The notes under the pieces: model-generated | Databases searched by the model: none | Told to the model about the DNA's origin: nothing | What the model saw: the letters and a program-made list of their open reading frames with translations, nothing else | Shown: piece after piece, positions 7,404-63,324 of the stretch | Position numbering within the stretch: position 1 is the stretch's first letter | Layout of the letters: each line of letters opens with the position of its first letter | Program-made: the position numbers and the translations under genes | Assembly: GCA_015521565.1 (NCBI GenBank) | Contig: WANX01000002.1 | Span: 7,308-71,307 of the forward strand | From: Candidatus Hydrothermarchaeota archaeon | GTDB taxonomy: Archaea; Hydrothermarchaeota; Hydrothermarchaeia; Hydrothermarchaeales; BMS3B | DNA length: 64,000 nt | Direction of reading: 5' to 3'

Positions 7404-8258
7404 CTACAGCTCCTTCAGCACCCTGTAGACTACTGAGAAGTCAAGAGCATCCAGATTCTTAGGAAAAGTCAGGGCAAAGAGCTCCTTTGCAGTACTCCCC
7501 ATGAACAGCGGCCTTTTCAGGACCCTTGCCAGGTCCTGCAGATAGTGGAGGTCTTTGTAGATAAGTGCAGAGGAAAAATGTGTGGAGAAGTCTTCATTCT
7601 GCAGCTTCTCTCTTTTGGCGTTAAGGACCATTGAGTTGCCTGCACCGGAGGCGAGAATCTCCAGCACCTTCTCCCTGCTCAGCCCGGCGCACTCCCCCAG
7701 CACCACCGCCTCTGCAATGGCTGCCATAAAGGAGCCCAGAACCAGATTGTTTATCAGCTTCATCCTGGTGGCGAGGGTTGGCCTGCCCAGATAGAAGATA
7801 TGCTCTCCTATTTTATCAATATAGGGCAGCGCCATCTCATATGCCTGCCTGTCGCCACTCACAAGCACTGTTAGCCTGCCCCGGGATGCGGGCACAACGC
7901 TTCCGAGCACCGGAGCCTCAAGGTAGTGGGCTCCCTTCTCTCTGAACATACGGTGGAAGTCTGCCACCGCCTCAAAGTGGTTGGTTGTGGTGTCGATTAT
8001 AACCTTTCCTTCACACTCTCCGGAGAGGAGCCCGTCCCTGCCAGTAGCTACAGACCTGACAGCATTGCTGTCAAAGAGGCACAAGAAGACAAAGTCCACC
8101 TCAGATAAGAGCGAGGCCGGGCTGTCCGCCACCTCAACTCCAAGCTCTTCCGCCTTCTCTCTGGTCCTGTTCCATACCACAAGCTCCACGTCCTGAGAAA
8201 TTAAGCGCTTTGCCATCGCCCTGCCAAGGTTGCCCAGACCTATAAACCCTGCCTTCAT
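7404..8258 (-). CDS. NAD(P)-dependent oxidoreductase, 3-hydroxyisobutyrate/6-phosphogluconate dehydrogenase family
   Basis: N-terminal Rossmann motif GFIGLGNLG and the family's C-terminal helical domain. The start is set at MKAGFIG. Confidence 0.75.
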   Translation of the reverse strand: MKAGFIGLGNLGRAMAKRLISQDVELVVWNRTREKAEELGVEVADSPASLLSEVDFVFLCLFDSNAVRSVATGRDGLLSGECEGKVIIDTTTNHFEAVADFHRMFREKGAHYLEAPVLGSVVPASRGRLTVLVSGDRQAYEMALPYIDKIGEHIFYLGRPTLATRMKLINNLVLGSFMAAIAEAVVLGECAGLSREKVLEILASGAGNSMVLNAKREKLQNEDFSTHFSSALIYKDLHYLQDLARVLKRPLFMGSTAKELFALTFPKNLDALDFSVVYRVLKEL

Positions 8259-8346
8259 GTCTATGCCTCCCGTGTAATATATTCTATGCAATTAATAAAT
8301 AACCTCCTGGCATGGTGGCGCAGGCCGGACTGCAGGGAACCTGTCC

Positions 8347-8356
8347 AAATAACATT
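8347..8356. repeat. Left copy of a 10-bp perfect direct repeat (aaataacatt) flanking the AT-rich island
   Basis: An identical decamer recurs at 10445-10454. The two copies bracket the low-GC two-gene insertion. Confidence 0.5.
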
Positions 8357-8502
8357 TTCTCACATCAAGTGGCTGTGATATAGCCTGAAAGTATAGGCGA
8401 AGAAGCTGTTTTGTTTAAGAACCGCTTCCTACCAGAGCTTTTCGTTTTCCTTTTCAGGCTCTTTCTGAAGTTGATGTTAAAGTTATTCAGAGCAATACAG
8501 AA

Positions 8503-8513
8503 GGTTTAAATAA
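8503..8513 (+). promoter_or_regulatory. TATA-box-like element (gtttaaataa) about 30 bp upstream of the ATPase start codon
   Basis: Archaeal promoter geometry (TATA at about -27/-30) relative to the ATG at 8538. Confidence 0.4.
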
Positions 8514-8537
8514 CAATGCTTTAGAAATAAGATTTTG

Positions 8538-9932
8538 ATGATAAGAGCTGACCTTAAGAAAGTTGTTATCAAGAACTTCAAAAGTCTTCACGACTGCGAA
8601 ATCGATATTAGAAAGCTAAATGTGGTAGTCGGTGCAAACGCATCCGGAAAATCAAATTTAGTGGAAGTATTTAAACTCTTGAAAAAAATCTATGCCGAAA
8701 AGGAAATTAATCCATTTTTTGAATGGTGGGGATACAATAACGTCGTATGGCAAAGAAAAGAAGAACTGCCCATAACAATCGGACTACTTTTTGAAATAGA
8801 AGGATATGAGGTTTATTTTGAAACTACATTTACCGGTATTGGAGGAAAATTTCAAATTTTGAGAGAACTCCTAGATATTAAAGGTTATCTGAAAATATTA
8901 AAAGAAGGTGAATGGTTAACAGTCAAGCATAATCCTGATTTTATAGAAGATATCATCAAAAATTTAAAGAGATATAAAGCAGATTATGGTCTAAAGACAA
9001 AATTAAGAAAGAGAAAAATAAAATTAATGGAAGAAAGAAAGATAAAGGTAGATTTTGATATAAAACTTTTAGACATACTCAGATTACCGATTTGGGTGGG
9101 CGTTGGATATAACCTTATTGATAGGGAGACTAATAAAAAGTTTATATTCTCGTATATTTTTATCCCCACTACTACATCGATTAATTATAAAAAATTTAAA
9201 GAAGAATTTGAAAGAGTTGCAATATTATGTCCACGAATAACCATAAAAAAGCCACGTTTCCGACCAGAAAGTTCACTTTATAGAATTGCTTCGAATAAAA
9301 TATTTTCTATTTTAACAGGAATGTCAATTTTACTGCCGCTTAATGTTCGCTTAATGAAAGACCCTCAAACTCTTAGAAAAGAGGAAACACTTAAAGAAGA
9401 TGGGAGTAATATTGCCAGCGTATTCCACAGTATTTATATCAATAAAGGAAAGATTCCTGAAGAGATCTACCATCCTCTATCAATGCTCTTCCCTGATATA
9501 GAAGTACGTCCACATATCACGGACGATGGAAGAGTCATGATTAAAATATGGGAAAAAGGTTTAGAGCTTCTACCTCCAAATATTTCTGATGGATTCTATA
9601 AAGTTTTGACGATTCTTACTGCCATCTACCTTAAACCGTCTTTATTAATAATAGATGAGATAGAAAATTCTCTACATCCAGAAACATTAGAACTTATTTT
9701 AGACACTATAAGGAAAAGCGATGTCAATGCAATAATAACAACTCATTCTCCTGTTGTTGTTGATATGGTCGATCTTAGCGAGTTAATTCTTATAGAAAAA
9801 GATTCAGAAGGGTCTAAATTCAGACGTATAAAAGACCCTGATAAAATAAAGGAGTTTTTAAGAGAAAAAGGCATAACGTTTAGTGAAGGATGGTTATATG
9901 GGGATCTATTTGGGACTGAGGAAAAAGTATGA
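8538..9932 (+). CDS. AAA_21/OLD-family ABC-type ATPase, the ATPase component of a predicted defence module
   Basis: N-terminal Walker A (VVGANASGKSN) in a NFKSL...I.I..LNVVVG context typical of SMC/RecF-like ABC ATPases. C-terminal Walker B plus D-loop (LLIIDEIENSLHP) and the AAA_21 hallmark H-loop (IITTHSP). About 30% GC against ~60% in the flanks. The real ATG is at 8538; the ORF caller used the TTG at 8535. Confidence 0.8.
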   Translation: MIRADLKKVVIKNFKSLHDCEIDIRKLNVVVGANASGKSNLVEVFKLLKKIYAEKEINPFFEWWGYNNVVWQRKEELPITIGLLFEIEGYEVYFETTFTGIGGKFQILRELLDIKGYLKILKEGEWLTVKHNPDFIEDIIKNLKRYKADYGLKTKLRKRKIKLMEERKIKVDFDIKLLDILRLPIWVGVGYNLIDRETNKKFIFSYIFIPTTTSINYKKFKEEFERVAILCPRITIKKPRFRPESSLYRIASNKIFSILTGMSILLPLNVRLMKDPQTLRKEETLKEDGSNIASVFHSIYINKGKIPEEIYHPLSMLFPDIEVRPHITDDGRVMIKIWEKGLELLPPNISDGFYKVLTILTAIYLKPSLLIIDEIENSLHPETLELILDTIRKSDVNAIITTHSPVVVDMVDLSELILIEKDSEGSKFRRIKDPDKIKEFLREKGITFSEGWLYGDLFGTEEKV

Positions 9933-10417
9933 AGATAAAAATGATTGTAGAAGATCACTATGGTGGAGAATTTTTAAAGAGGGTAATTAATAGACTTAAA
10001 ATAGATGGAATGGTATCCAGAAATCTTAGTGTTCCAAAACCAAAACATTTACCTGCTTTATGTAATTCAAAACTCACCAGAATTTTGAAAAAATTTGATA
10101 ATACTTGTGATAAAATTTTAGTTTTCTTAGACTCTGATGGCCCACAAAATCTTAATGATAGATACGCAAAAACAGAATGTCATATCCCAAATAATATGTC
10201 AACTCCAGTAGAGATAGTTCTGACAGATTATGAAATTGAAGAGTGGATATGTATCAGTTTAGATTTAAGGTGGTATTTAAAACCTTCAGAAGAACTTAAA
10301 AAGAAATTTGGATATGAAAAAAGCCATCTAATTTCATATAGTGATAAATTAGACTTTGACAGGTTGCTAAAAGACTGTCGCTCCTTCAAGTCTTTCCTTT
10401 CCGCTTTAAAAACATAA
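9929..10417 (+). CDS. Small Toprim-like (DUF4276-like) protein, the predicted nuclease partner of the ATPase
   Basis: Overlaps the ATPase stop (ATGA). Has a conserved acidic strand (KMIVEDHYGGE) and a DxD motif after a hydrophobic strand (ILVFLDSDGP), the minimal Toprim signature found in OLD, GajA and AriB nucleases. Confidence 0.55.
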   Translation: MKIKMIVEDHYGGEFLKRVINRLKIDGMVSRNLSVPKPKHLPALCNSKLTRILKKFDNTCDKILVFLDSDGPQNLNDRYAKTECHIPNNMSTPVEIVLTDYEIEEWICISLDLRWYLKPSEELKKKFGYEKSHLISYSDKLDFDRLLKDCRSFKSFLSALKT

Positions 10418-10444
10418 ATGTACTGTAAATAAGTGGTTGTCGAA

Positions 10445-10454
10445 AAATAACATT
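10445..10454. repeat. Right copy of the 10-bp direct repeat (aaataacatt) flanking the AT-rich island
   Basis: Identical to 8347-8356. Confidence 0.5.
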
Positions 10455-10779
10455 CCGGCTCTAAGCTCTATTCTCAGCCTCACCTGGAAGTTACATTGAG
10501 TGACAACTCCGCATTATGCTTCATGGCAAGCAACAATCGAAGCAACAGGCGTACAAGACCACTTTATTACTGGCAGAGCTACCACTCGAACATCTCTTCC
10601 TTCTCGTGCAAAAGAAGCAGCGGTAAATATATATGAAAGCAGAGATAAGCTTAGACTGCCGACAGAGGCTGAAAAGCGGATTGTGCCTGCACCCGGCGGC
10701 ACTGCTGTTGTGGTCAGACCTGAAGCTCTGGTCAGAGGCTGGCATACGGCAGCAAATACAATTTAGAGGTGAACTTATC

Positions 10780-11487
10780 ATGGAAGCGGTGAGAACGGGC
10801 ATTCCGGGTATGGACAATCTGTTTTCAGCCGGAGGCTTTCCCAGAGGCAACAGCATCCTGCTCATAGGCGGTCCTGGAAGTGGAAAGTCCATCTTCGGTA
10901 TGCAGTACCTATACTCCGGTGCAAGGGAGTATGAAGAGCCGGGGATATACATAACCTTCGAGGAAACCCCCGAGAAGATAAAGAGGAACATGCTCGCCTT
11001 TGGCTGGGACCTGGATGAGCTTGAGAAAGAAGAAAAGCTCATAATAATGGACGCTGTGACCTACCGCATCTCCGGCGATGTGGATGAGGAAACGCTGCGC
11101 TCTGGTCTGGATGTGGACAACCTTATCGCAAATCTTGATGATGCCATCTCTGCAACAGGTGCAGAGCGCGTCGTGATAGACTCCCTCTCGGTAATGGGGC
11201 TCTATGCCCACGATGAGTTTGAGAAGCGCACAAAGCTGCTACGTCTTTCGAATCTGCTGAGCATGCGCAGAGTAACCAGCCTGGTGATAACCGAAGCAAG
11301 GAGTGCTGATATAGGGATAAAGGAGTTTCCCATCGAAACGTTCATGTTTGATGGCGTTATAACCCTTCGCCTGGATACTGAAACGCAGGAAAGGAGGATA
11401 TCAATACGCAAGATGCGTGGCACAAAACATGTCATAGGCTCCTTCAAGTTTGCAATAACCGACCGCGGAATAGAGCTTTCACCGTAG
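10780..11487 (+). CDS. KaiC/RadA-like RecA-superfamily ATPase
   Basis: Walker A LLIGGPGSGKS. Single KaiC-like domain architecture (GIPGMDNLF...YITFEE...). The start is set at MEAVRTG. Confidence 0.75.
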   Translation: MEAVRTGIPGMDNLFSAGGFPRGNSILLIGGPGSGKSIFGMQYLYSGAREYEEPGIYITFEETPEKIKRNMLAFGWDLDELEKEEKLIIMDAVTYRISGDVDEETLRSGLDVDNLIANLDDAISATGAERVVIDSLSVMGLYAHDEFEKRTKLLRLSNLLSMRRVTSLVITEARSADIGIKEFPIETFMFDGVITLRLDTETQERRISIRKMRGTKHVIGSFKFAITDRGIELSP

Positions 11488-16908: not shown

Positions 16909-18669
16909 ATGGGAGAGCAGCTTGAGAAAATATACGATGTGGAGCTCAGGCCCGGGGCGGGTGAGGCTTACGTCTGCAACCTCACCAAGCCGGAATTTGC
17001 AGAGGCCATGAAGACCAACATTCCAAAGGAGCCCCTCCCGGATGACCAGATGGTGGAGGTGGCTCTCAAGCGTCTGGATGAGCTCCGCAAAGAGAGAAAG
17101 AGCATCCAGCTGTATCTGGACATATGTGTGCGCTGTGGCGCCTGCATGAAGCAGTGCCATTACTTTATTGGCACCGGCGACCCGAAAAACACGCCCGTGG
17201 GCAGGGCAGAGCTTCTGCGTAAGGTTTACAGGGCGCACTTCACCATAAGCGGCAAGCTCTTCGGCAAGCTGGTGGGTGCCGAGAAGCTCACCCCGGAGAT
17301 TTTGAAGAACGAGTGGTACAAGTACTTCTACCAGTGCTCAGAGTGCAGGCGCTGCTCTGTGTTCTGCCCCTACGGCATAGACCAGGCAGAGATTACCATG
17401 GCTGGCAGGGAAGTGCTCAACAGCGTGGGCCTGGCCACGAAGTACATCACCCAGGTAATTTCGCAGGTCTACAAGCACGGCAACAACCTGGGCATACCAG
17501 AGCCGGCGTTCAAGTACAACTGCCAGTTCCTGGAGGAGGAGATAAAAGAGAGCACGGGTGTTGATGTTAAGATACCCGTGGACAAGGAGAAGGCAGAGAT
17601 ACTCTACCTGCCCCCGAGTGCAGACCTCTTCACCAACACCGACACCATGATAGGCGTCGCCAAGGTGTTCCATGCAGTAGGTGCGGACTGGACGATGAGC
17701 ACCTACGCCAGCGAGGCCGCGAACTTCGGGCTCTTCTTCAGCTACGACGACCTCAAGGCGATTAACCTGCGCGTCGTCGAGACAGCCAAGAAGCTGGGGG
17801 CCAAGCTCGTCGTGTTTGGCGAGTGCGGCCACGCGTGGCGTGCTGCCAGGCAGTTCATGGAGGCGATGAATGGACCCCTCCCGTTTAAGTTCATGAACAT
17901 CCTGGAGTACACCGCAGAACAGATACGCAAGGGCAAGCTCAAAATCGACAAATCGAGAAACGACGACGTCGTTGTAACGCTGCACGACCCCTGCAACTAC
18001 GCCAGGGCGGGGGACCTGGTGGAGGAGACTCGCTTTGTGATAAAGTCGGTGTGCAACAACTTCGTGGAGATGGACGAAAGTGTTACCAAAGTTAAAACCT
18101 TCTGCTGCGGTGGCGGCGGAGGCCTGCTCACAGAGGAGATAATGGAGCTCAGGATGAAGGGCGGCCTGCCTCGTGCAACGGCGGTTAAAGAGGTGGTTGA
18201 GGCACATGGCGTCAACTATCTTGCCGCACCCTGTGCTATAGACAAAGCCCAGCTGCCGCTGGTAATGCAGCACTACGAAATACCCGTGCAGGTTGGTGGA
18301 ATCCACGACCTGGTGAGCAAGGCACTTATTCTTGAGGGTCAGGAGGAGTTCGAGGCAAAGAAGAAGGCCGAGGAAGAGGCTGCCAGGGCCGCGGCTGCGG
18401 CTGTGCCGGCGGTCTGCGGACTCTGTGATGCGGAGTTTGCCACCATGGACGAGTGCTGTGAGCATGCGGAGAAGGACCACAAGATATCCAAAGAGCAGTG
18501 CGACATGGTATGCGAGGCCAAAGAGGGAGCAGCCGCCGAGGCTGTGCCGGCGGTCTGCGGACTCTGCGATGCGGAGTTTGCCACCATGGACGAGTGCTGC
18601 GAGCATGCGGAGAAGGACCACAAGATATCCAAAGAGCAGTGCGACATGGTGTGTGAGTCGAAAAAATGA
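16909..18669 (+). CDS. HdrD/DsrK-like iron-sulfur CCG-domain subunit carrying a tandem Cys-rich C-terminal extension
   Basis: Two ferredoxin-like clusters (CVRCGACMKQC and CSECRRCSVFCP) and two CCG domains (HDPCNYA and TFCCGGGGG). The last ~95 aa are two near-identical 47-aa Cys-rich repeats. Confidence 0.75.
   Translation: MGEQLEKIYDVELRPGAGEAYVCNLTKPEFAEAMKTNIPKEPLPDDQMVEVALKRLDELRKERKSIQLYLDICVRCGACMKQCHYFIGTGDPKNTPVGRAELLRKVYRAHFTISGKLFGKLVGAEKLTPEILKNEWYKYFYQCSECRRCSVFCPYGIDQAEITMAGREVLNSVGLATKYITQVISQVYKHGNNLGIPEPAFKYNCQFLEEEIKESTGVDVKIPVDKEKAEILYLPPSADLFTNTDTMIGVAKVFHAVGADWTMSTYASEAANFGLFFSYDDLKAINLRVVETAKKLGAKLVVFGECGHAWRAARQFMEAMNGPLPFKFMNILEYTAEQIRKGKLKIDKSRNDDVVVTLHDPCNYARAGDLVEETRFVIKSVCNNFVEMDESVTKVKTFCCGGGGGLLTEEIMELRMKGGLPRATAVKEVVEAHGVNYLAAPCAIDKAQLPLVMQHYEIPVQVGGIHDLVSKALILEGQEEFEAKKKAEEEAARAAAAAVPAVCGLCDAEFATMDECCEHAEKDHKISKEQCDMVCEAKEGAAAEAVPAVCGLCDAEFATMDECCEHAEKDHKISKEQCDMVCESKK
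18400..18666 (+). repeat. 141-bp perfect-period tandem duplication (two copies) inside the 3' end of the hdrD-like gene
   Basis: Copy 1 is 18400-18540 and copy 2 is 18541-18666. Almost all differences between them are synonymous third-position changes. Confidence 0.9.
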
Positions 18670-49311: not shown

Positions 49312-52300
49312 CTATTGCTCCGGCCTCCTTCCCAGTAGCAGCAGCGGCAGCACCGCTATGAGTGCCACAAAGGTTGGACCGCAGATACCCTTTTTCTCAG
49401 CGGGCTCAGAGGGCTGTGGTTCTTCCGGAGCTGGCTCCGGCTTCTTTTCGGGCTCTGGCACCTTCTTTACAGGTGGAGAGGTCTCCGGCTGTTCCTGCGG
49501 GGAAACCGGTGCGGGAGGTTTCTCCTCAGGCGCCGGGGCAGCTGATGGCGGAGGGCTCGCCACCTCCTCCACCTGGGCGAATATATCCCTGAAACCCGAG
49601 TTCTCCCTGCCGGTGATGGCAAACCAGCTGAAGCCCGGTGTTTCCGCGGTGTAGTAGAAGGTTCCGTTCTCCACCTTTTCAGGTCTGGTGGTCAGCTTCT
49701 CCCATTTCTTGTTTTCATTCAGGCGGTACATTGCCACCGTTGACGGGTCGATGTCGTTGTCCCTGAGCCAGGCCTCCTTCACCAGGAAGGTTATACTGGC
49801 TTTCTTTACATAGGTGCCGGGCTTGCTGTACTTTATCAGTAAGTAACTGTAGAGTCTGCCTGGTGCGGGATCGAAAATCACCCAGTCCGGCTTCTTTGAG
49901 TAGGTGCTGACTCTGACCTTTGCATAGTGCTGGTCCCGGGCGGCGAAGACTTCTATACTGGAGATGTGGGGCACATACTTCCGGTTGAAAACTGCCACAT
50001 AGCTTTCGCCTGCCTTTATTCTGGGAATCTCCACGGTATTCTTCGGCGCACCGCCGCCACCGCCGCCTGCTGAAGGTGGCGGGCTGGCTGTGGTAAAGCT
50101 GAATTCAGCGCTCTGGTTGGAGTGGCCAGCTCTGTCGGTGCTGTTTACCACAAAGTAGTACCTGGTTCCAGAGCTGAGCCCCGTCAGTTTGAGGGTGTGG
50201 GCTGTTTTTGGAGTGGTGTTGCCGACGCTCCAGGAGTACTTCCCGGAGGAGGTGCCGTAGAGCACAAGGCTGCCAGCAGGTTCGTCTGTCTGCCAGCTGA
50301 CTACGGCACTGCTCTGAGTAACAGAGGACACCTTGACGCCGGTTATCACCGGCGGGGATATGTCAACACCCATGGGGGCAAAAACGCTGAAGCGGGTGAG
50401 GTTGGAGTGCACATACCTGCCGGCAGTGTTAACCGCGTTTGTACCCGGGACTGGCTCCCAGCCGGTGCCGTTGTACCGCCATATGCGCAGGGTGCTCTCA
50501 TTTACACCGGCACTGCTGATGTCCGAGGGGGTGTAGCTGAAGTTGATGTACACCCAGGCGCTGCTGGTGTTGGTGATGTTCAGATACTTGCCCAGGCTCC
50601 TGTAGCCCGCAGGCTCCAGGGCCGGCGATGAGGTGGCGTTTATAATTATATCCCCGGTGAAGCTGAGGTTGAGCTTCACCCCTCCAATTGATGTCTCTGC
50701 CACGCGTGTATTCGGGGCGAAGGATGCCCTGAAGTCAATGCTGTTCTGAATCAGTGCAACCCGGTTCAGCACATTGCTGTCGGAGCTGTCTATCAGGACC
50801 CCGCTGCCGGAGTGTTTTACTGTGACGTTCTGCAGCGTATTGCTCTTGCTACTGGAACTGATTCTGATACCACCGCCCGGGTTTGCCTCGATGGTGGACC
50901 TGACAAGCCTGTTGTTGCTGGAGGAGAGGAAGTATGCTCCGATGTAGCTCGAGCTTATTCTGCTGTCTGAGATGTTGTTGCCGCCGGAGTAGTTGAGGTA
51001 GATGCCCATCTTGGAGTTGCTGCTGGCGGTGACGTTGATTATGATGTTGTTCTCTGACCTGTGCAGCAGGACTCCGTAGTCCCCGTTGGAGCCGGCGTGG
51101 TTGTCCTCAATTGTGGAAAAGTTGGAATTTTCCAGATGTATTCCGCTCCTGTTGTTGGCGGTGGCGTTGTTACCCTTTACGGAGTTCAGCAGGGAGCTGT
51201 AGATGTAGACCCCGCTGTAGTTGTTCCCTGCGATGCGGTTGGTGTAAATCTGGTTCTGATTGGAGGCGTCCAGCACAATACCATGCCTGTAGCTCCCCGA
51301 AACTGTGTTCCCGGAAAGGGTGACGTTGGTGGAGCGCACAATCTCCACACCGTACTTTCTGCTGGAGCTTATTGTGTTTCCGCTGATAAGATTGTCTCTG
51401 GACCTGTCCATGAGGATACCCCACAAATTGCCGCTCAGGGTGTTGTGGCTGATGTTGGTGAGGTTGGACGACTGCAGGTATATGCCCTGGTTTAAGCTGG
51501 TGCTTATAACATTCCCGGAAAGCAGGTTGCTGTTCGATGACTCCAGAATTACGCCATAGGTGTTGGAGGTAAGGTTGTTGCCGCTGAGGGTGTTGCTCAC
51601 ACTGCTCATGTTCAGATGAACACCCGCCAGGGTGTTGTTTACCAGAGTGTTGTAGCGTATCTGGTTGCCTCTGGAGGTCTCAAGCAGAATGCCGGAGACG
51701 TTTATAGTGTCCTTTATGATGTTGTCATCCACTGTTGTGTCGTTCACATTCTGGAGATAGACGCCTGTTGAGTTGCTCCCGGTTATGGTATTGTTCAGAA
51801 CTGAGCTCAGGTTGGAGTTGACAGACCATATACCGAATTCGTTCTCTGAAAGGGTGTTGTTGAAAATCCTGGCGTAGCTGCTGGCGTCGATGACAATGCC
51901 GTCGTAGCTTCTGTTGACCGTGTTGTTCTCTATGCTGGTGCTGTTGGACCTGAGTGAAATTATGGCGTATCGGGAGGCGAGGGTTATCTGATTCCCGGCA
52001 ACCTCCACGCTGTTCGACCTCTCGACAAATATGCCATCTGTGCCTGAGCTTATCCGGTTCATAAGCGCCTGCGTCGAGCTGGAGCGCAGGAGGTAGATGC
52101 CGATGTTTGCGGAGTTTATTATTGTGTTGCCCTTTACAACACTGCCTATGGCATCGGTGAGGTCAATGCCATCGTCCAGATTATCCCTGAGGGTGTTGTA
52201 CCTAACCACATTGTTGAGACCGCCTATGGCTATGCCGTCCTGTGAATTGCCAGATGCAAAGTTGTTCTCCACGGTGTTGGCATCAGAGCTCACCAGGAAG

Positions 52301-53655
52301 ATTCCTGTGCCGGTGTTCTGGCTGGCATTATTGCCTCTGATTGAGTTGACCTTTGAGTTCTGAATGTATATCCCTGTTGTACTGGAAACGATGGTGGTGT
52401 TCTCTACCAGACTGCTGTTTACCTGGTTGAAACGAATTCCGGAGTTCCCCCAGTCAGTAAGTCTGAGATTTATCACCTTCACATTCACCAGCGTCGTGGT
52501 GGCGTTGTTCACATAGACTCCGGAGGTCCCCAGGGTGTCCACACCGTCTATTACCATGCCCGCGCCGTCAAAGACCACATTGCTCGAGGTTATGTTTATG
52601 CACGCCGTGGTGGTGCTGTTTATTATGCTGGTGTTCAGCACATAATAGCCGGGAGAGCTCAGTGCAGCGCAGGTGCTTATGTTGTTTACAGGTGGAGGTG
52701 TGGACAGGGGCAGGTAGTCGATGTTGGTGGAGTTGATTGTGTAGGTGGAGTCACAGATTCCGTCGTGGTCTGCATCGGTGCAGCTGTCACTGTGGCCGGT
52801 GCCGCTGGGAGAGCCCCAGTAGTTGCCACCGATGAAAGGCCCCCCAACTATGTTACCGCCTGCCCTCAGGCTTGTGTTCCACTTATTTGTGGACACAGTC
52901 TGATAGAAGTGGATGTTGGCGGTGTTGTTGAATTTGTTGTTGTAAATCAGGTTGTCAGCGGGAGCTAAAACGAAGTATATCCCATAACTGCCGCTGTTTT
53001 CTATGACATTACCTGAGATTATGTTACCGCTGGCCGTGGAACGGTATATATAAATTCCGTTTATTTTTGAATTGAGAATCCGGTTGTTTATTATCGTATT
53101 ATTTCTACCGGAAATATAAATTCCATGGTTGTTGCCCTCTATGAGGTTGTCGCTCAGATTGTTTCTGCTTCCGGTGATAATACCGTAACTGTTGAAAGAG
53201 GCGTTGCTGCCGGTAATTGTGTTGTCCTGACCATCAACCTGAATCCCCGAATAGATGTTGGAGCTTGCCGTTACCCCGGCAACCGCTCCTTTTCCGGCTG
53301 TGAAGTAAATTCCTCCGTACCAGTCGGTGAGGGTGACGTTCTTAACTGTAATGTTGGTGAAGGCGACTCCTGAAATCACGGGCACATAGATGCCGTAGGT
53401 GTAGGAGCTGTTGTCCACACCGTCTATTACCCTGCCCGCGCCGTCGAAGACCACATTGCTCGAGCTTATGTTTATGCACACCTTGGCGGTGCTGTTTATT
53501 ATGCTGGTGTTCAGCACATAATAGCCGGGAGAGCTTATAACTGTGCATGAGTTCACAGCAGTTGCGGCATGCACCGCCGGCAGCAGAGTTAACACAAGCA
53601 TAAGCCCCAGAACCCGCAATAAAGACCCACTCCTTGTGATGGATGCCATCGCCAT
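49312..53655 (-). CDS. Giant secreted parallel-beta-helix surface glycoprotein (1447 aa) with Fn3 domain, Pro/Thr-rich stalk and PGF-CTERM-like anchor
   Basis: Signal peptide. Dozens of about 22-aa right-handed beta-helix (NosD/pectate-lyase-like) repeats with N-x-S/T sequons. Fn3 domain (VVSWQTDEPAGS...YYFVVNSTD). PEPAPEEP stalk. C-terminus GPTFVALIAVLPLLLLGRRPEQ. Confidence 0.8.
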   Translation of the reverse strand: MAMASITRSGSLLRVLGLMLVLTLLPAVHAATAVNSCTVISSPGYYVLNTSIINSTAKVCINISSSNVVFDGAGRVIDGVDNSSYTYGIYVPVISGVAFTNITVKNVTLTDWYGGIYFTAGKGAVAGVTASSNIYSGIQVDGQDNTITGSNASFNSYGIITGSRNNLSDNLIEGNNHGIYISGRNNTIINNRILNSKINGIYIYRSTASGNIISGNVIENSGSYGIYFVLAPADNLIYNNKFNNTANIHFYQTVSTNKWNTSLRAGGNIVGGPFIGGNYWGSPSGTGHSDSCTDADHDGICDSTYTINSTNIDYLPLSTPPPVNNISTCAALSSPGYYVLNTSIINSTTTACINITSSNVVFDGAGMVIDGVDTLGTSGVYVNNATTTLVNVKVINLRLTDWGNSGIRFNQVNSSLVENTTIVSSTTGIYIQNSKVNSIRGNNASQNTGTGIFLVSSDANTVENNFASGNSQDGIAIGGLNNVVRYNTLRDNLDDGIDLTDAIGSVVKGNTIINSANIGIYLLRSSSTQALMNRISSGTDGIFVERSNSVEVAGNQITLASRYAIISLRSNSTSIENNTVNRSYDGIVIDASSYARIFNNTLSENEFGIWSVNSNLSSVLNNTITGSNSTGVYLQNVNDTTVDDNIIKDTINVSGILLETSRGNQIRYNTLVNNTLAGVHLNMSSVSNTLSGNNLTSNTYGVILESSNSNLLSGNVISTSLNQGIYLQSSNLTNISHNTLSGNLWGILMDRSRDNLISGNTISSSRKYGVEIVRSTNVTLSGNTVSGSYRHGIVLDASNQNQIYTNRIAGNNYSGVYIYSSLLNSVKGNNATANNRSGIHLENSNFSTIEDNHAGSNGDYGVLLHRSENNIIINVTASSNSKMGIYLNYSGGNNISDSRISSSYIGAYFLSSSNNRLVRSTIEANPGGGIRISSSSKSNTLQNVTVKHSGSGVLIDSSDSNVLNRVALIQNSIDFRASFAPNTRVAETSIGGVKLNLSFTGDIIINATSSPALEPAGYRSLGKYLNITNTSSAWVYINFSYTPSDISSAGVNESTLRIWRYNGTGWEPVPGTNAVNTAGRYVHSNLTRFSVFAPMGVDISPPVITGVKVSSVTQSSAVVSWQTDEPAGSLVLYGTSSGKYSWSVGNTTPKTAHTLKLTGLSSGTRYYFVVNSTDRAGHSNQSAEFSFTTASPPPSAGGGGGGAPKNTVEIPRIKAGESYVAVFNRKYVPHISSIEVFAARDQHYAKVRVSTYSKKPDWVIFDPAPGRLYSYLLIKYSKPGTYVKKASITFLVKEAWLRDNDIDPSTVAMYRLNENKKWEKLTTRPEKVENGTFYYTAETPGFSWFAITGRENSGFRDIFAQVEEVASPPPSAAPAPEEKPPAPVSPQEQPETSPPVKKVPEPEKKPEPAPEEPQPSEPAEKKGICGPTFVALIAVLPLLLLGRRPEQ

Positions 53656-53851
53656 TTCAAATACACCTCATGAGCTGATGCGGAATAAATTGATAAAATA
53701 AGCACAGATTTTTTATATTTTACGTTTAATATGTTTTAAAATGCGTTACTTTGTAATACAACCAAAAATAAGATGATATGTATCATAAGAATGTTCCATG
53801 ACTCGAAACTTTGTTTCACATTCCGAAAGCCGCCTCAGTGTCCCGGACACC

Positions 53852-54676
53852 TCAGAATTCAAGGAATGTGCCCCTGTCCCAGAAGTAGTTTATTATCTCC
53901 CCAACCCACTCCACAAACTCCGGCTCGCCGGACATGAAACCGCTGTCCAGGTTGGAGCCGCCACCTCTGTAGGGGAAGTTTATTCCGGCTATCCTGCTGT
54001 CCACAACGATTGCATGCATAAGAACTTCGGGATGCTCTTTCATCCGGAAGTTTTCCCTGAAGCTCCTGAGCCGGGCACCGCTCAGCCCATGGCTGCTCAC
54101 AAACTGCGCGGCGTACTTCTGCCTCACCTCCGCATATCCCGTGCTGCATATGCCGCGATATTGCACCCCCTGAAGCACCTTGTTGCCAACCAGCTCGAAA
54201 AACTGATACGACGGTCTGTCGGCAAGCATGTCAATGCTTTCCTCCGCCTGCTGGATGCGCATCAGAAGCTCTGTTATCAGTGAGAAGGGGTCTTTAATAA
54301 ACCTGGCACTGTTCAGCAGTTTCAGACCGTGGATGAATCTTTTCGGAAGGTAGGAGATGCTCACCCTGTTCAGCGGCTCAACCCTGGTGTTTATTGCGCT
54401 GATGTTCTGAGCTATGTCCTGAAAGCTTCTGGATATGTAGAAGCCCAGATTTGTGAGCCGGTATCTGCCCGCCTTTTCGTCCACCAGCCCTATCTTTTTA
54501 AGAGAATCCAGATAGCGCTTCACAGTGGCAAAGGACTTCTCGGCTCCCGCCTTTATGAGAGCCCGGCGCACATCTGCAACGCTGACGGGAACCTCGTTCA
54601 TAAGGCCAAGCACAGCCAGCCTGTTGTCCAGTGCACACTCGGAAAGAATTTGCTGTAGAGAAATACCATTTTTCAT
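53852..54676 (-). CDS. Archaeal winged-helix transcriptional regulator (FilR1/DUF1724-like)
   Basis: N-terminal wHTH (LAVLGLMNEVPVSVADVRRALIKAG...VKRYLDSLKKIGLV) and a C-terminal alpha/beta domain. Divergent from the surface-protein gene. Confidence 0.55.
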   Translation of the reverse strand: MKNGISLQQILSECALDNRLAVLGLMNEVPVSVADVRRALIKAGAEKSFATVKRYLDSLKKIGLVDEKAGRYRLTNLGFYISRSFQDIAQNISAINTRVEPLNRVSISYLPKRFIHGLKLLNSARFIKDPFSLITELLMRIQQAEESIDMLADRPSYQFFELVGNKVLQGVQYRGICSTGYAEVRQKYAAQFVSSHGLSGARLRSFRENFRMKEHPEVLMHAIVVDSRIAGINFPYRGGGSNLDSGFMSGEPEFVEWVGEIINYFWDRGTFLEF

Positions 54677-54993
54677 GTCATTCTCTCCGCTCTGCAACGG
54701 CATCCACCTTTTAAAGGAAATTCCGGACAGACTTACTCACAGTTTTATGCAATGCTTTCTTGTTGCGGTGCGGATTCGTCCATCACGACATGCTGCTGCT
54801 AATTCAGAATTAAGAAAAAAGATAACCTGAATAAAGATATTAAATTATAAAATTTTGTGATATTTGTCCCCTGTTTTGTAAAAAAAATTTATATGATTGT
54901 GCGCAGTTCGCGGGCGCGCAGGTACTGTGCAGGCCCAAAATTTTTTAAGATATATCCGTGTAATAATAGTTAAAAGGGGGAAGAGAGATAAAA

Positions 54994-55452
54994 GTGCTGA
55001 TGTGCACAGACGGTTCCAGATTTGCAGAAGAAGCAATAGAGCAGGCGGGGTACCTGCTCCGCCATACCTCCCCCGAGGTCACAATCCTCAGGGTAATTCC
55101 CAACTTTGAGGAGGAGTACGCAGAGTACAATGAGTACTTCGAAGTGTTCAGGGACGACATCCACAGGCTGAGAAAGCTTGGCATGCCCAAGGCTGTGAAG
55201 AGGTCCCTGGAGGAGGGTGTGAAGATTCTCAGGAAGTATGGAATAGAAGCGAAAACCAAAGTGCGTCGTGGGCGTGCCGCAGATGAGATACTGAAGGAGA
55301 TAGAGGAGGGAGGTTACAACCTCGTGGTCCTGGCCTCCTACGGCAGGGGTATAAGCAAGTTTATGCTGGGCAGCGTTTCCAGGGAGGTTGTGCACCGCTC
55401 CGAGATACCTGTGCTTGTGATGAAGACAGGAGAGGACAGGGGGATGTTCTGA
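54994..55452 (+). CDS. Universal stress protein (UspA family)
   Basis: C-terminal ATP-binding motif GSVSREVVHRSEIPVLVM. Confidence 0.8.
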   Translation: MLMCTDGSRFAEEAIEQAGYLLRHTSPEVTILRVIPNFEEEYAEYNEYFEVFRDDIHRLRKLGMPKAVKRSLEEGVKILRKYGIEAKTKVRRGRAADEILKEIEEGGYNLVVLASYGRGISKFMLGSVSREVVHRSEIPVLVMKTGEDRGMF

Positions 55453-63226: not shown

Positions 63227-63249
63227 GGCTATCTTTAAGGAGGGAAGAG

Positions 63250-63324
63250 GGCCACGGCCGAGATTTGAACTCGGGCTAAGGGATCCACAGTCCCTTGTGC
63301 TGACCAGGCTACACTACCGTGGCC
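63250..63324 (-). tRNA. tRNA-His (anticodon GUG) with genomically encoded G-1; no encoded CCA
   Basis: Hand-folded cloverleaf. An 8-bp acceptor stem (GGCCACGG/CCGTGGCC) that includes the G-1:C73 pair. D-stem GTGT/GCAC. Anticodon stem AGGGA/TCCCT with loop CTGTGGA. T-arm CCGAG-TTCAAAT-CTCGG. Confidence 0.8.

Follow-up and report, generated by a model that had tools for sequence, protein, structure and literature searches.

HEC-01 (Hma-embedded candidate 01, PADLOC-DB v2), the described system closest to the locus considered here, has been reported as a pair consisting of an ABC ATPase together with a TOPRIM protein (Payne et al., bioRxiv 10.1101/2024.01.29.577857). PARIS offers a plausible working analogy, in which a nuclease is set free once the ATPase scaffold has detected a trigger (PMC11464382). 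DUF4276 and RloB, which also occur in ATPase-associated pairs, have been placed in the Toprim superfamily (PMC12065111). Here, we analysed a 64,000-nt stretch of archaeal DNA (the window, the coordinates of which are used throughout), in which a solitary cassette made up of an HEC-01-like ATPase gene and a small Toprim gene lies between a dehydrogenase gene and a kaiC-like gene. The cassette is strain-variable within a single hydrothermal archaeal population, and the limits of its insertion were resolved to single bases. Defence genes are well known to be gained and lost through illegitimate or homologous recombination, and current understanding is unchanged by the present result, which offers, at base-pair resolution, a natural comparison of a locus before and after it gained a candidate defence cassette, in a hydrothermal archaeal phylum that is uncultured.

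Limits and polarity of the insertion

ThiC, encoded nearby, was used for an exact-protein look-up, which gave five contigs from metagenomes and metagenome-assembled genomes (MAGs) of hydrothermal deposits; four of these supplied the empty alleles. Four empty alleles from the same hydrothermal population (L004–L007; 12–21 kb each) were 99.8–99.9% identical to the window over 8–9 kb on each side. In these, the gene for a 3-hydroxyisobutyrate-type NAD(P) dehydrogenase (7404–8258, minus strand; Pfam NAD_binding_2 and NAD_binding_11; 99.6–100% identical in the empty alleles) and that for a KaiC-like ATPase (10780–11487, plus strand; Pfam KaiC, 1.4e-69) are adjacent, with only ~240 bp between them. 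Homology on the left stops at position 8336 (...ggactgcagg) and picks up on the right at 10620 (gcggtaaatat...), and the empty alleles contain just the bases CG between these breakpoints (...ctgcagg/CG/gcggtaaat...). The inserted DNA therefore spans 8337–10619 on the plus strand (2283 bp) and replaces both bases. The first-pass annotation of this DNA had placed an insertion of ~2.1 kb at 8292–10460; the insertion itself was thus borne out, and its limits were shifted by comparison with the empty alleles.

The filled allele was found with the same limits in three assemblies besides the window, namely an NCBI MAG (L001), an ENA assembly (L002) and a Logan assembly (L003), at 100% identity across both junctions. 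There it lies on contigs of 2.3–2.5 kb with 30–127 bp of host sequence per side; the contig of a further locus (L008) breaks at 8287, 49 bp before the insertion point. Confinement of an allele to contigs of this length is typical of graph bubbles and could point to a chimera of metagenome assembly, in which a low-GC segment of another organism had been mis-joined to the host. This is extremely unlikely, as the short contigs span both host junctions without a mismatch and come from three different assemblies and pipelines. The coexistence of filled and empty alleles instead appears to be a real strain polymorphism, seen as a strain-level bubble.

Filled and empty alleles were separated by 16–30 single-nucleotide polymorphisms (SNPs) within 12.5–17 kb of aligned flank per empty allele, which corresponds to a flank divergence of 0.1–0.2%. 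These SNPs were spread evenly, with none closer than 300 bp to the left junction or 135 bp to the right one, and their distribution gave no sign of a divergent recombination tract around the junctions. With such a low divergence and no clustering of SNPs at the junctions, the insertion appears to be recent.

The polarity of the event was determined with four outgroup genomes, namely Ca. Pyrohabitans jungbluthii JdFR-16 and JdFR-17 and two other MAGs (loci L009, L010, L011 and L078). The dehydrogenase is 81–83% identical to those of the outgroups, in which the KaiC-like protein (start at 10780) is also well conserved, and the host organism is a Hydrothermarchaeota archaeon close to Ca. Pyrohabitans. 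In all four genomes, an intact gene for a 312-residue protein with an EF-Tu domain 2 (GTP_EFTU_D2, PF03144) lies between kaiC and the dehydrogenase gene (e.g. L011, 4827–5765). In the empty alleles, an open reading frame (ORF) of 57 residues was called, which is matched by a profile hidden Markov model (HMM) built from the four outgroup proteins (E-value 2.6e-8, from profile position 260–265 to 306), in agreement with tblastn. The species of the window has lost ~250 N-terminal codons of the 312-residue gene, and the C-terminal remnant of 57 codons was the target of the insertion. The left part of this target (8312–8336, plus strand), as called in the empty alleles and colinear with L009 and L010, comprises the first eight codons (MVAQAGLQ), and the right part (10620–10766, plus strand), as assigned by the outgroup HMM and tblastn, comprises the remaining 48 codons to the stop. 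The insert thus splits the remnant after the eighth codon, with two bases removed.

The empty junction (gcatggtggcgcaggcc..ctgcaggcggcggta) was colinear at the DNA level with the sequence of outgroup L010 (gcatgctgggcgcaggcctgagctacagggcggcggta), with ~27 nt to the left of the junction and 13 nt or more across it. As the order of the ancestral gene is thus preserved to either side of the insertion point, the empty state came first, and the filled allele arose by insertion rather than by deletion. The opposite polarity, with a cassette ancestral at the locus and empty alleles generated by deletion, would be compatible with the junction taken alone, which is symmetrical (2283 bp versus 2 bp, with a short GCAG microhomology), and with a weak tblastn extension of the similarity to the 312-residue gene into the right non-coding end of the insert. 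It is nevertheless extremely improbable in view of the outgroups, whose DNA runs colinearly with that of the empty allele through the junction, of the related species, which lack the cassette at this site, and of the foreign composition of the cassette. Moreover, the profile HMM gave the filled allele no extra score (22.4 versus 22.5 bits), so that the weak tblastn extension was not supported and was discarded.

GC content in 200-nt windows falls from 51–58% to 26–35% between ~8400 and 10450, and none of the other 1-kb bins of the window is below 46%. The insert as a whole has 32.9% GC, against 56.4% for the remaining window, and the cassette proper has 31–33%. The GC content at third codon positions (GC3) is 0.26 for the ATPase gene and 0.23 for the small gene, compared with 0.59–0.69 for the adjacent host genes and a mean of 0.69 (standard deviation 0.10) over the 29 ORFs of the window with at least 300 residues, which makes the ATPase gene an extreme outlier. 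By these GC3 values, the insert is of foreign origin. The first-pass annotation had already recognized a sharp low-GC segment and proposed a horizontally acquired cassette, which the foreign composition and the empty alleles now corroborate; the analysis of sliding GC content and codon usage that it suggested sets both cassette genes apart from the host genes, and its figure of ~60% GC for the flanking genes, which have 51–58%, was too high. 

Two further loci of the window were noted. The only other stretches below 38% GC (53600–53900 and 54700–55000) are short and intergenic, on either side of a gene for a 283-residue protein (53852–54703, minus strand), and are located next to the gene for a secreted beta-helix repeat protein of 1447 residues (49312–53655). 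In addition, a second strain-variable indel is suggested at ~18388–18663 (breakpoint 18454/18455; L004, 880–1255), where L004 has 100 bp extra compared with the window. Imperfect repeats of ~135 bp, 92–93% identical, are found there in or beside a Fer4-type gene, which was called differently (split) in L004 than in L007.

The decamer repeat and the ends of the insert

The decamer AAATAACATT occurs at 8347–8356 and again at 10445–10454, exactly as first annotated, and the window has no third exact copy. The copies had been taken to bracket the inserted DNA as a target-site duplication or an att remnant, with the prediction that the flanking genes would be adjacent in related genomes and that a single decamer would mark the empty site. 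The adjacency was found, as described above, but none of the four empty alleles contains a copy of the decamer on either strand. The insert encloses both copies, the left one at 10 bp from its left end and the right one at 165 bp from its right end, and no similarity around them extends past the ten bases. When both non-coding flanks of the gene pair (276 and 363 nt) were subjected to dinucleotide shuffling, they shared an exact direct repeat of at least 10 nt in 8.2% of 5000 trials, and 19% of 592 equally sized and equally spaced segment pairs elsewhere in the window share one. Within the insert itself, nine different 10-mers recur.

That the decamers are nonetheless a target-site duplication, or the cores of attL and attR sites whose mobilising enzyme was lost or acted in trans, would suit an exact 10-bp repeat that flanks the gene pair on both sides and recurs nowhere else in 64 kb. 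The probability of this explanation is close to nil: the insert ends at 8337 and 10619, beyond both copies; the empty alleles are devoid of the decamer; such repeats arise by chance in 8–19% of comparable cases; the unit shared with other cassette copies starts at ~8496, well inside the left decamer; and the locus is without an integrase, a transposase, a transfer RNA (tRNA) or inverted ends. The duplication or att reading was therefore rejected. More generally, a short AT-rich repeat does not testify to transposition when the island that it flanks is AT-rich as well.

Two further sequences resemble the decamer. A near-copy, AAATAACAAT, is found at 8508–8517, that is, one base downstream of the start at 8507 given in the first-pass annotation, which had placed it in the promoter; it overlaps cagaaggTTTAAATAaca, a sequence ~27 bp ahead of the ATG that three cassette copies have in common and that Methanoperedens retains in part. 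In the host flank to the left of the insert, positions 8297–8311 (AAATAACCTCCTGGC) also contain AAATAAC and match 10445–10459 (AAATAACATTCCGGC) at 12 of 15 bases, which we judged to be a chance similarity between AT-rich, promoter-like sequences.

A search for other hallmarks of mobility was likewise negative. The insert has no significant terminal inverted repeats from end to end, no att core is common to its ends and the empty site, and Rfam gave no match in or near it at either gathering or E-value thresholds. No tRNA lies within 50 kb, the sole tRNA of the window being at 63249–63323. The only ORFs of the insert are the two cargo genes and, as the first-pass annotation had observed, it encodes no integrase or transposase, nor any other recombinase. 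The insert thus resembles islands borne by integrases or transposases in its sharp compositional step and its presence or absence between strains, and differs from them in the lack of a target duplication, an att core, a recombinase, a tRNA target and inverted ends. The junctions display 1–4 bp of ambiguous microhomology (GCAG). From this microhomology and the missing hallmarks of site-specific recombination or transposition, we infer that a linear donor fragment entered by illegitimate end-joining. Cassettes of this type would then be able to enter a genome without dedicated integration machinery or target duplication.

The recurring unit and its orphan flanks

The closest relative of the gene pair was found in a Ca. 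Pyrohabitans sp. MAG (L089), with 84% and 81% amino-acid identity for the two proteins. This copy has 33% GC in a 53% GC background and occupies another locus, flanked by a PF06677 gene and by a gene for a class-II aminoacyl-tRNA synthetase, and its DNA homology with the window is restricted to 8498–10410. No empty site for it was detected in the window or the loci compared. A second copy (L097; ERZ23495177, SAMN12239308, positions 1–1566) is 97.4% identical at the DNA level from window position 8496 onwards, and its 31 bases upstream of this point are unrelated. L097 stems from the same metagenome sample as the empty allele L005, so that this community harbours the cassette in no fewer than two contexts.

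An alignment of the window, L097 and L089 was conserved from ~8494 on and unrelated upstream, and the similarity among cassette copies downstream ends at the stop codon. From the homology limits in L089 and L097, the recurring unit therefore extends from promoter to stop. The conserved segment that precedes the ATPase gene (8498–8537, plus strand) contains a purine-rich motif, cagaagg, resembling a B recognition element (BRE), and a TATA box, tttaaata (8504–8511). By comparison with the archaeal TATA consensus, it is a probable archaeal BRE/TATA promoter of the ATPase gene, ~27 bp before its ATG.

Outside this unit, the insert comprises two orphan flanks. The left one (8337–8497; 161 bp, 38.5% GC) is non-coding, holds the first decamer and is absent from L089 and L097; the right one (10418–10619; ~202–205 bp, ~43% GC) holds the second decamer and begins shortly after the homology with L089 ends, at 10410. 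An origin of the flanks from the lost 312-residue gene or its intergenic region was considered and discarded, as blastn with a word size of 7 against the outgroups found nothing and the profile HMM showed no extension. Neither did the flanks match plasmids or phages in blastn searches, viral contigs, JGI metagenomes or, as a concatenated six-frame peptide query, the protein database. Searches of viral contigs with proteins and with exact 23–26-mers for a source of the flanks or the cassette gave nothing informative, and the JGI metagenomes yielded only one relative at 62% and one at 32%. In the simplest reading, the orphan flanks are donor sequence carried along with the cassette.

Because the decamers lie in these donor-derived flanks, the empty sites of the present genome do not bear on a duplication that may have occurred in the donor. 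A nested history can therefore be envisaged, in which an inner element bounded by the decamers (8347–10454) first integrated at a AAATAACATT site in the donor and a larger fragment was subsequently moved here. We regard this scenario as very unlikely. The 97.4%-identical cassette of L097 shares nothing with the window upstream of 8496, and that of L089 likewise lacks the upstream stretch, which leaves 8357–8495 outside the recurring unit although it would belong to the inner element; furthermore, no recombinase genes are present and the repeat is within chance expectation.

Alternatively, the promoter-to-stop pair might be a selfish, self-mobilising unit, with the Toprim nuclease making the breaks through which it is copied into new sites. 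If true, this would explain why the pair stands alone, with housekeeping genes on either side, in Pyrohabitans, Methanoperedens and Thermococcus, why its left end recurs sharply at its own promoter and why it lacks both a recombinase and a target duplication, but we consider it very unlikely. Our preferred reading remains the end-joining of a donor fragment that contained the recurring unit and some of its surroundings.

The gene pair and described defence systems

The first cargo gene (8538–9932, plus strand) encodes an ABC-type ATPase of 464 residues that matches Pfam AAA_21 (1e-24), AAA_15 (4.5e-16), SMC_N and AAA_23. It features a Walker A motif (residues 32–39), an SDG signature (350–352), a Walker B motif (369–374) and an H-loop (401–404). 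A TTG at 8535 was tried as an alternative start, for which an exact-protein look-up found nothing; the called start is the ATG at 8538. Among the 135 PADLOC families matched, HEC-01A ranked first (4.1e-36, 123 bits), followed by PDC-M07A, AbiLi, AriA, mad3, NsnB, Old and GajA, and comparison with solved structures gave marginal matches only.

The second gene (9929–10417, plus strand) encodes a DUF4276-like protein of 162 residues and is translationally coupled to the first gene, the stop codon of which overlaps with its ATG (ATGA). The protein has a Toprim fold with the invariant E...DxD signature and conserved catalytic residues. Its AlphaFold model is confident (predicted local distance difference test score of 93), and 30 homologues retain E8/D9, D68-x-D70 and E102/E104/E105, which follow strands 1, 3 and 4, respectively, a pattern that fits the Toprim signature described for DUF4276 (PMC12065111). 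The top PADLOC match is HEC-01B, albeit a weak one (3.3e-5), and DUF4276 is weakly matched by 18 of the 30 homologues (best E-value 3.4e-5).

The adjacent pair is conserved in Methanoperedens (60–66% identity) and Thermococcales (~50%), and Methanocaldococcus has an ATPase homologue that is ~48% identical. Solitary pairs were observed in Thermococcus sp. AM4 (L093, 8001–9808), between the PTH2 and TruD genes, and in Ca. Methanoperedens (L095, 8001–9873), between those for UvrB and PALP. Their GC content is near that of their hosts (48 versus 52% and 34 versus 39%, respectively), unlike the strong contrast in Pyrohabitans-like genomes. The family of HEC-01-like ABC ATPases with a DUF4276-type Toprim protein is thus widespread in archaea; to our knowledge, it has no demonstrated function and no solved structure.

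Based on fold, motifs and family resemblance, the cassette is a candidate defence pair of the HEC-01/OLD-like class. PARIS, Gabija and OLD suggest by analogy a mode of action in which the ATPase would detect an invader and gate a metal-dependent Toprim nuclease; cleavage of nucleic acid by the latter would then abort the infection or block it. Virus-driven selection on the gene pair could be probed in the polymorphic population.

Taken as a whole, the locus is in all likelihood best explained as follows. A foreign, low-GC fragment of 2283 bp recently entered the gene remnant that separates the dehydrogenase gene from the kaiC-like gene and that is dispensable, probably by illegitimate, end-joining-type recombination of a linear donor fragment, with the loss of two bases and with neither a target duplication nor an element-encoded recombinase. 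The fragment consists of a self-contained promoter-to-stop operon (~8497–10417), which encodes the HEC-01/OLD-like ATPase–Toprim cargo, plus 161 and ~202–205 bp of probable hitch-hiking donor flank, in which the decamer pair is coincidental AT-rich sequence. 

Several observations weigh against parts of this explanation. In Escherichia coli, HEC-01 protected against none of the phages tested (Payne et al., bioRxiv 10.1101/2024.01.29.577857), and in the two loci examined the Thermococcus and Methanoperedens homologues are flanked by housekeeping genes rather than situated in defence islands. The small protein scored 17.8 bits against Pfam DUF4276 (PF14103; E-value 0.0043, C-terminal part), below the gathering threshold of 30.2. 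As to the event itself, no donor or vector was found, since the orphan flanks match nothing in the collections searched, and the joining mechanism is read solely from the missing hallmarks and from 1–4 bp of ambiguous GCAG at the junctions. Entry by end-joining, a role in defence and the assignment of sensing to the ATPase and of cutting to the nuclease are put forward as proposals.

Among described systems, MADS (Mad3/Mad4) and AbiL (AbiLi/AbiLii-RloB) resemble the cassette in the pairing of an ATPase with a DUF4276- or RloB-type Toprim-like protein, and their ATPase profiles match (mad3, 9e-25; AbiLi, 9e-26). However, the cassette ATPase reaches 96.4 bits against NCBIfam NF047739, the equivalog cut-off of which is 420 for Mad3, and no methylase or other MADS gene is near the cassette; as for AbiL, RloB was matched in just 2 of 30 members of the small-protein family. 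PARIS likewise combines an AAA_15/21 ATPase (AriA; profile match 1e-25) with a separate Toprim effector, the DUF4435 nuclease AriB. The latter has ~300 residues, whereas the small protein has 162, is DUF4276-like and gave no AriB or DUF4435 match in Pfam or PADLOC, and the cassette ATPase scores better against HEC-01A than against AriA. OLD-family nucleases and the Gabija protein GajA fuse the ATPase and Toprim moieties into one chain, whereas the cassette encodes them in two coupled ORFs (8538–9932 and 9929–10417), with marginal sequence similarity. HEC-01 differs in being Hma-embedded, whereas the present cassette is solitary and archaeal and its second protein matches HEC-01B weakly. It shares with HEC-01 both defining components, namely an ABC ATPase that matches HEC-01A and an adjacent TOPRIM protein that matches HEC-01B, arranged with the ATPase first and the small protein second, and with the E and DxD residues of the latter conserved.

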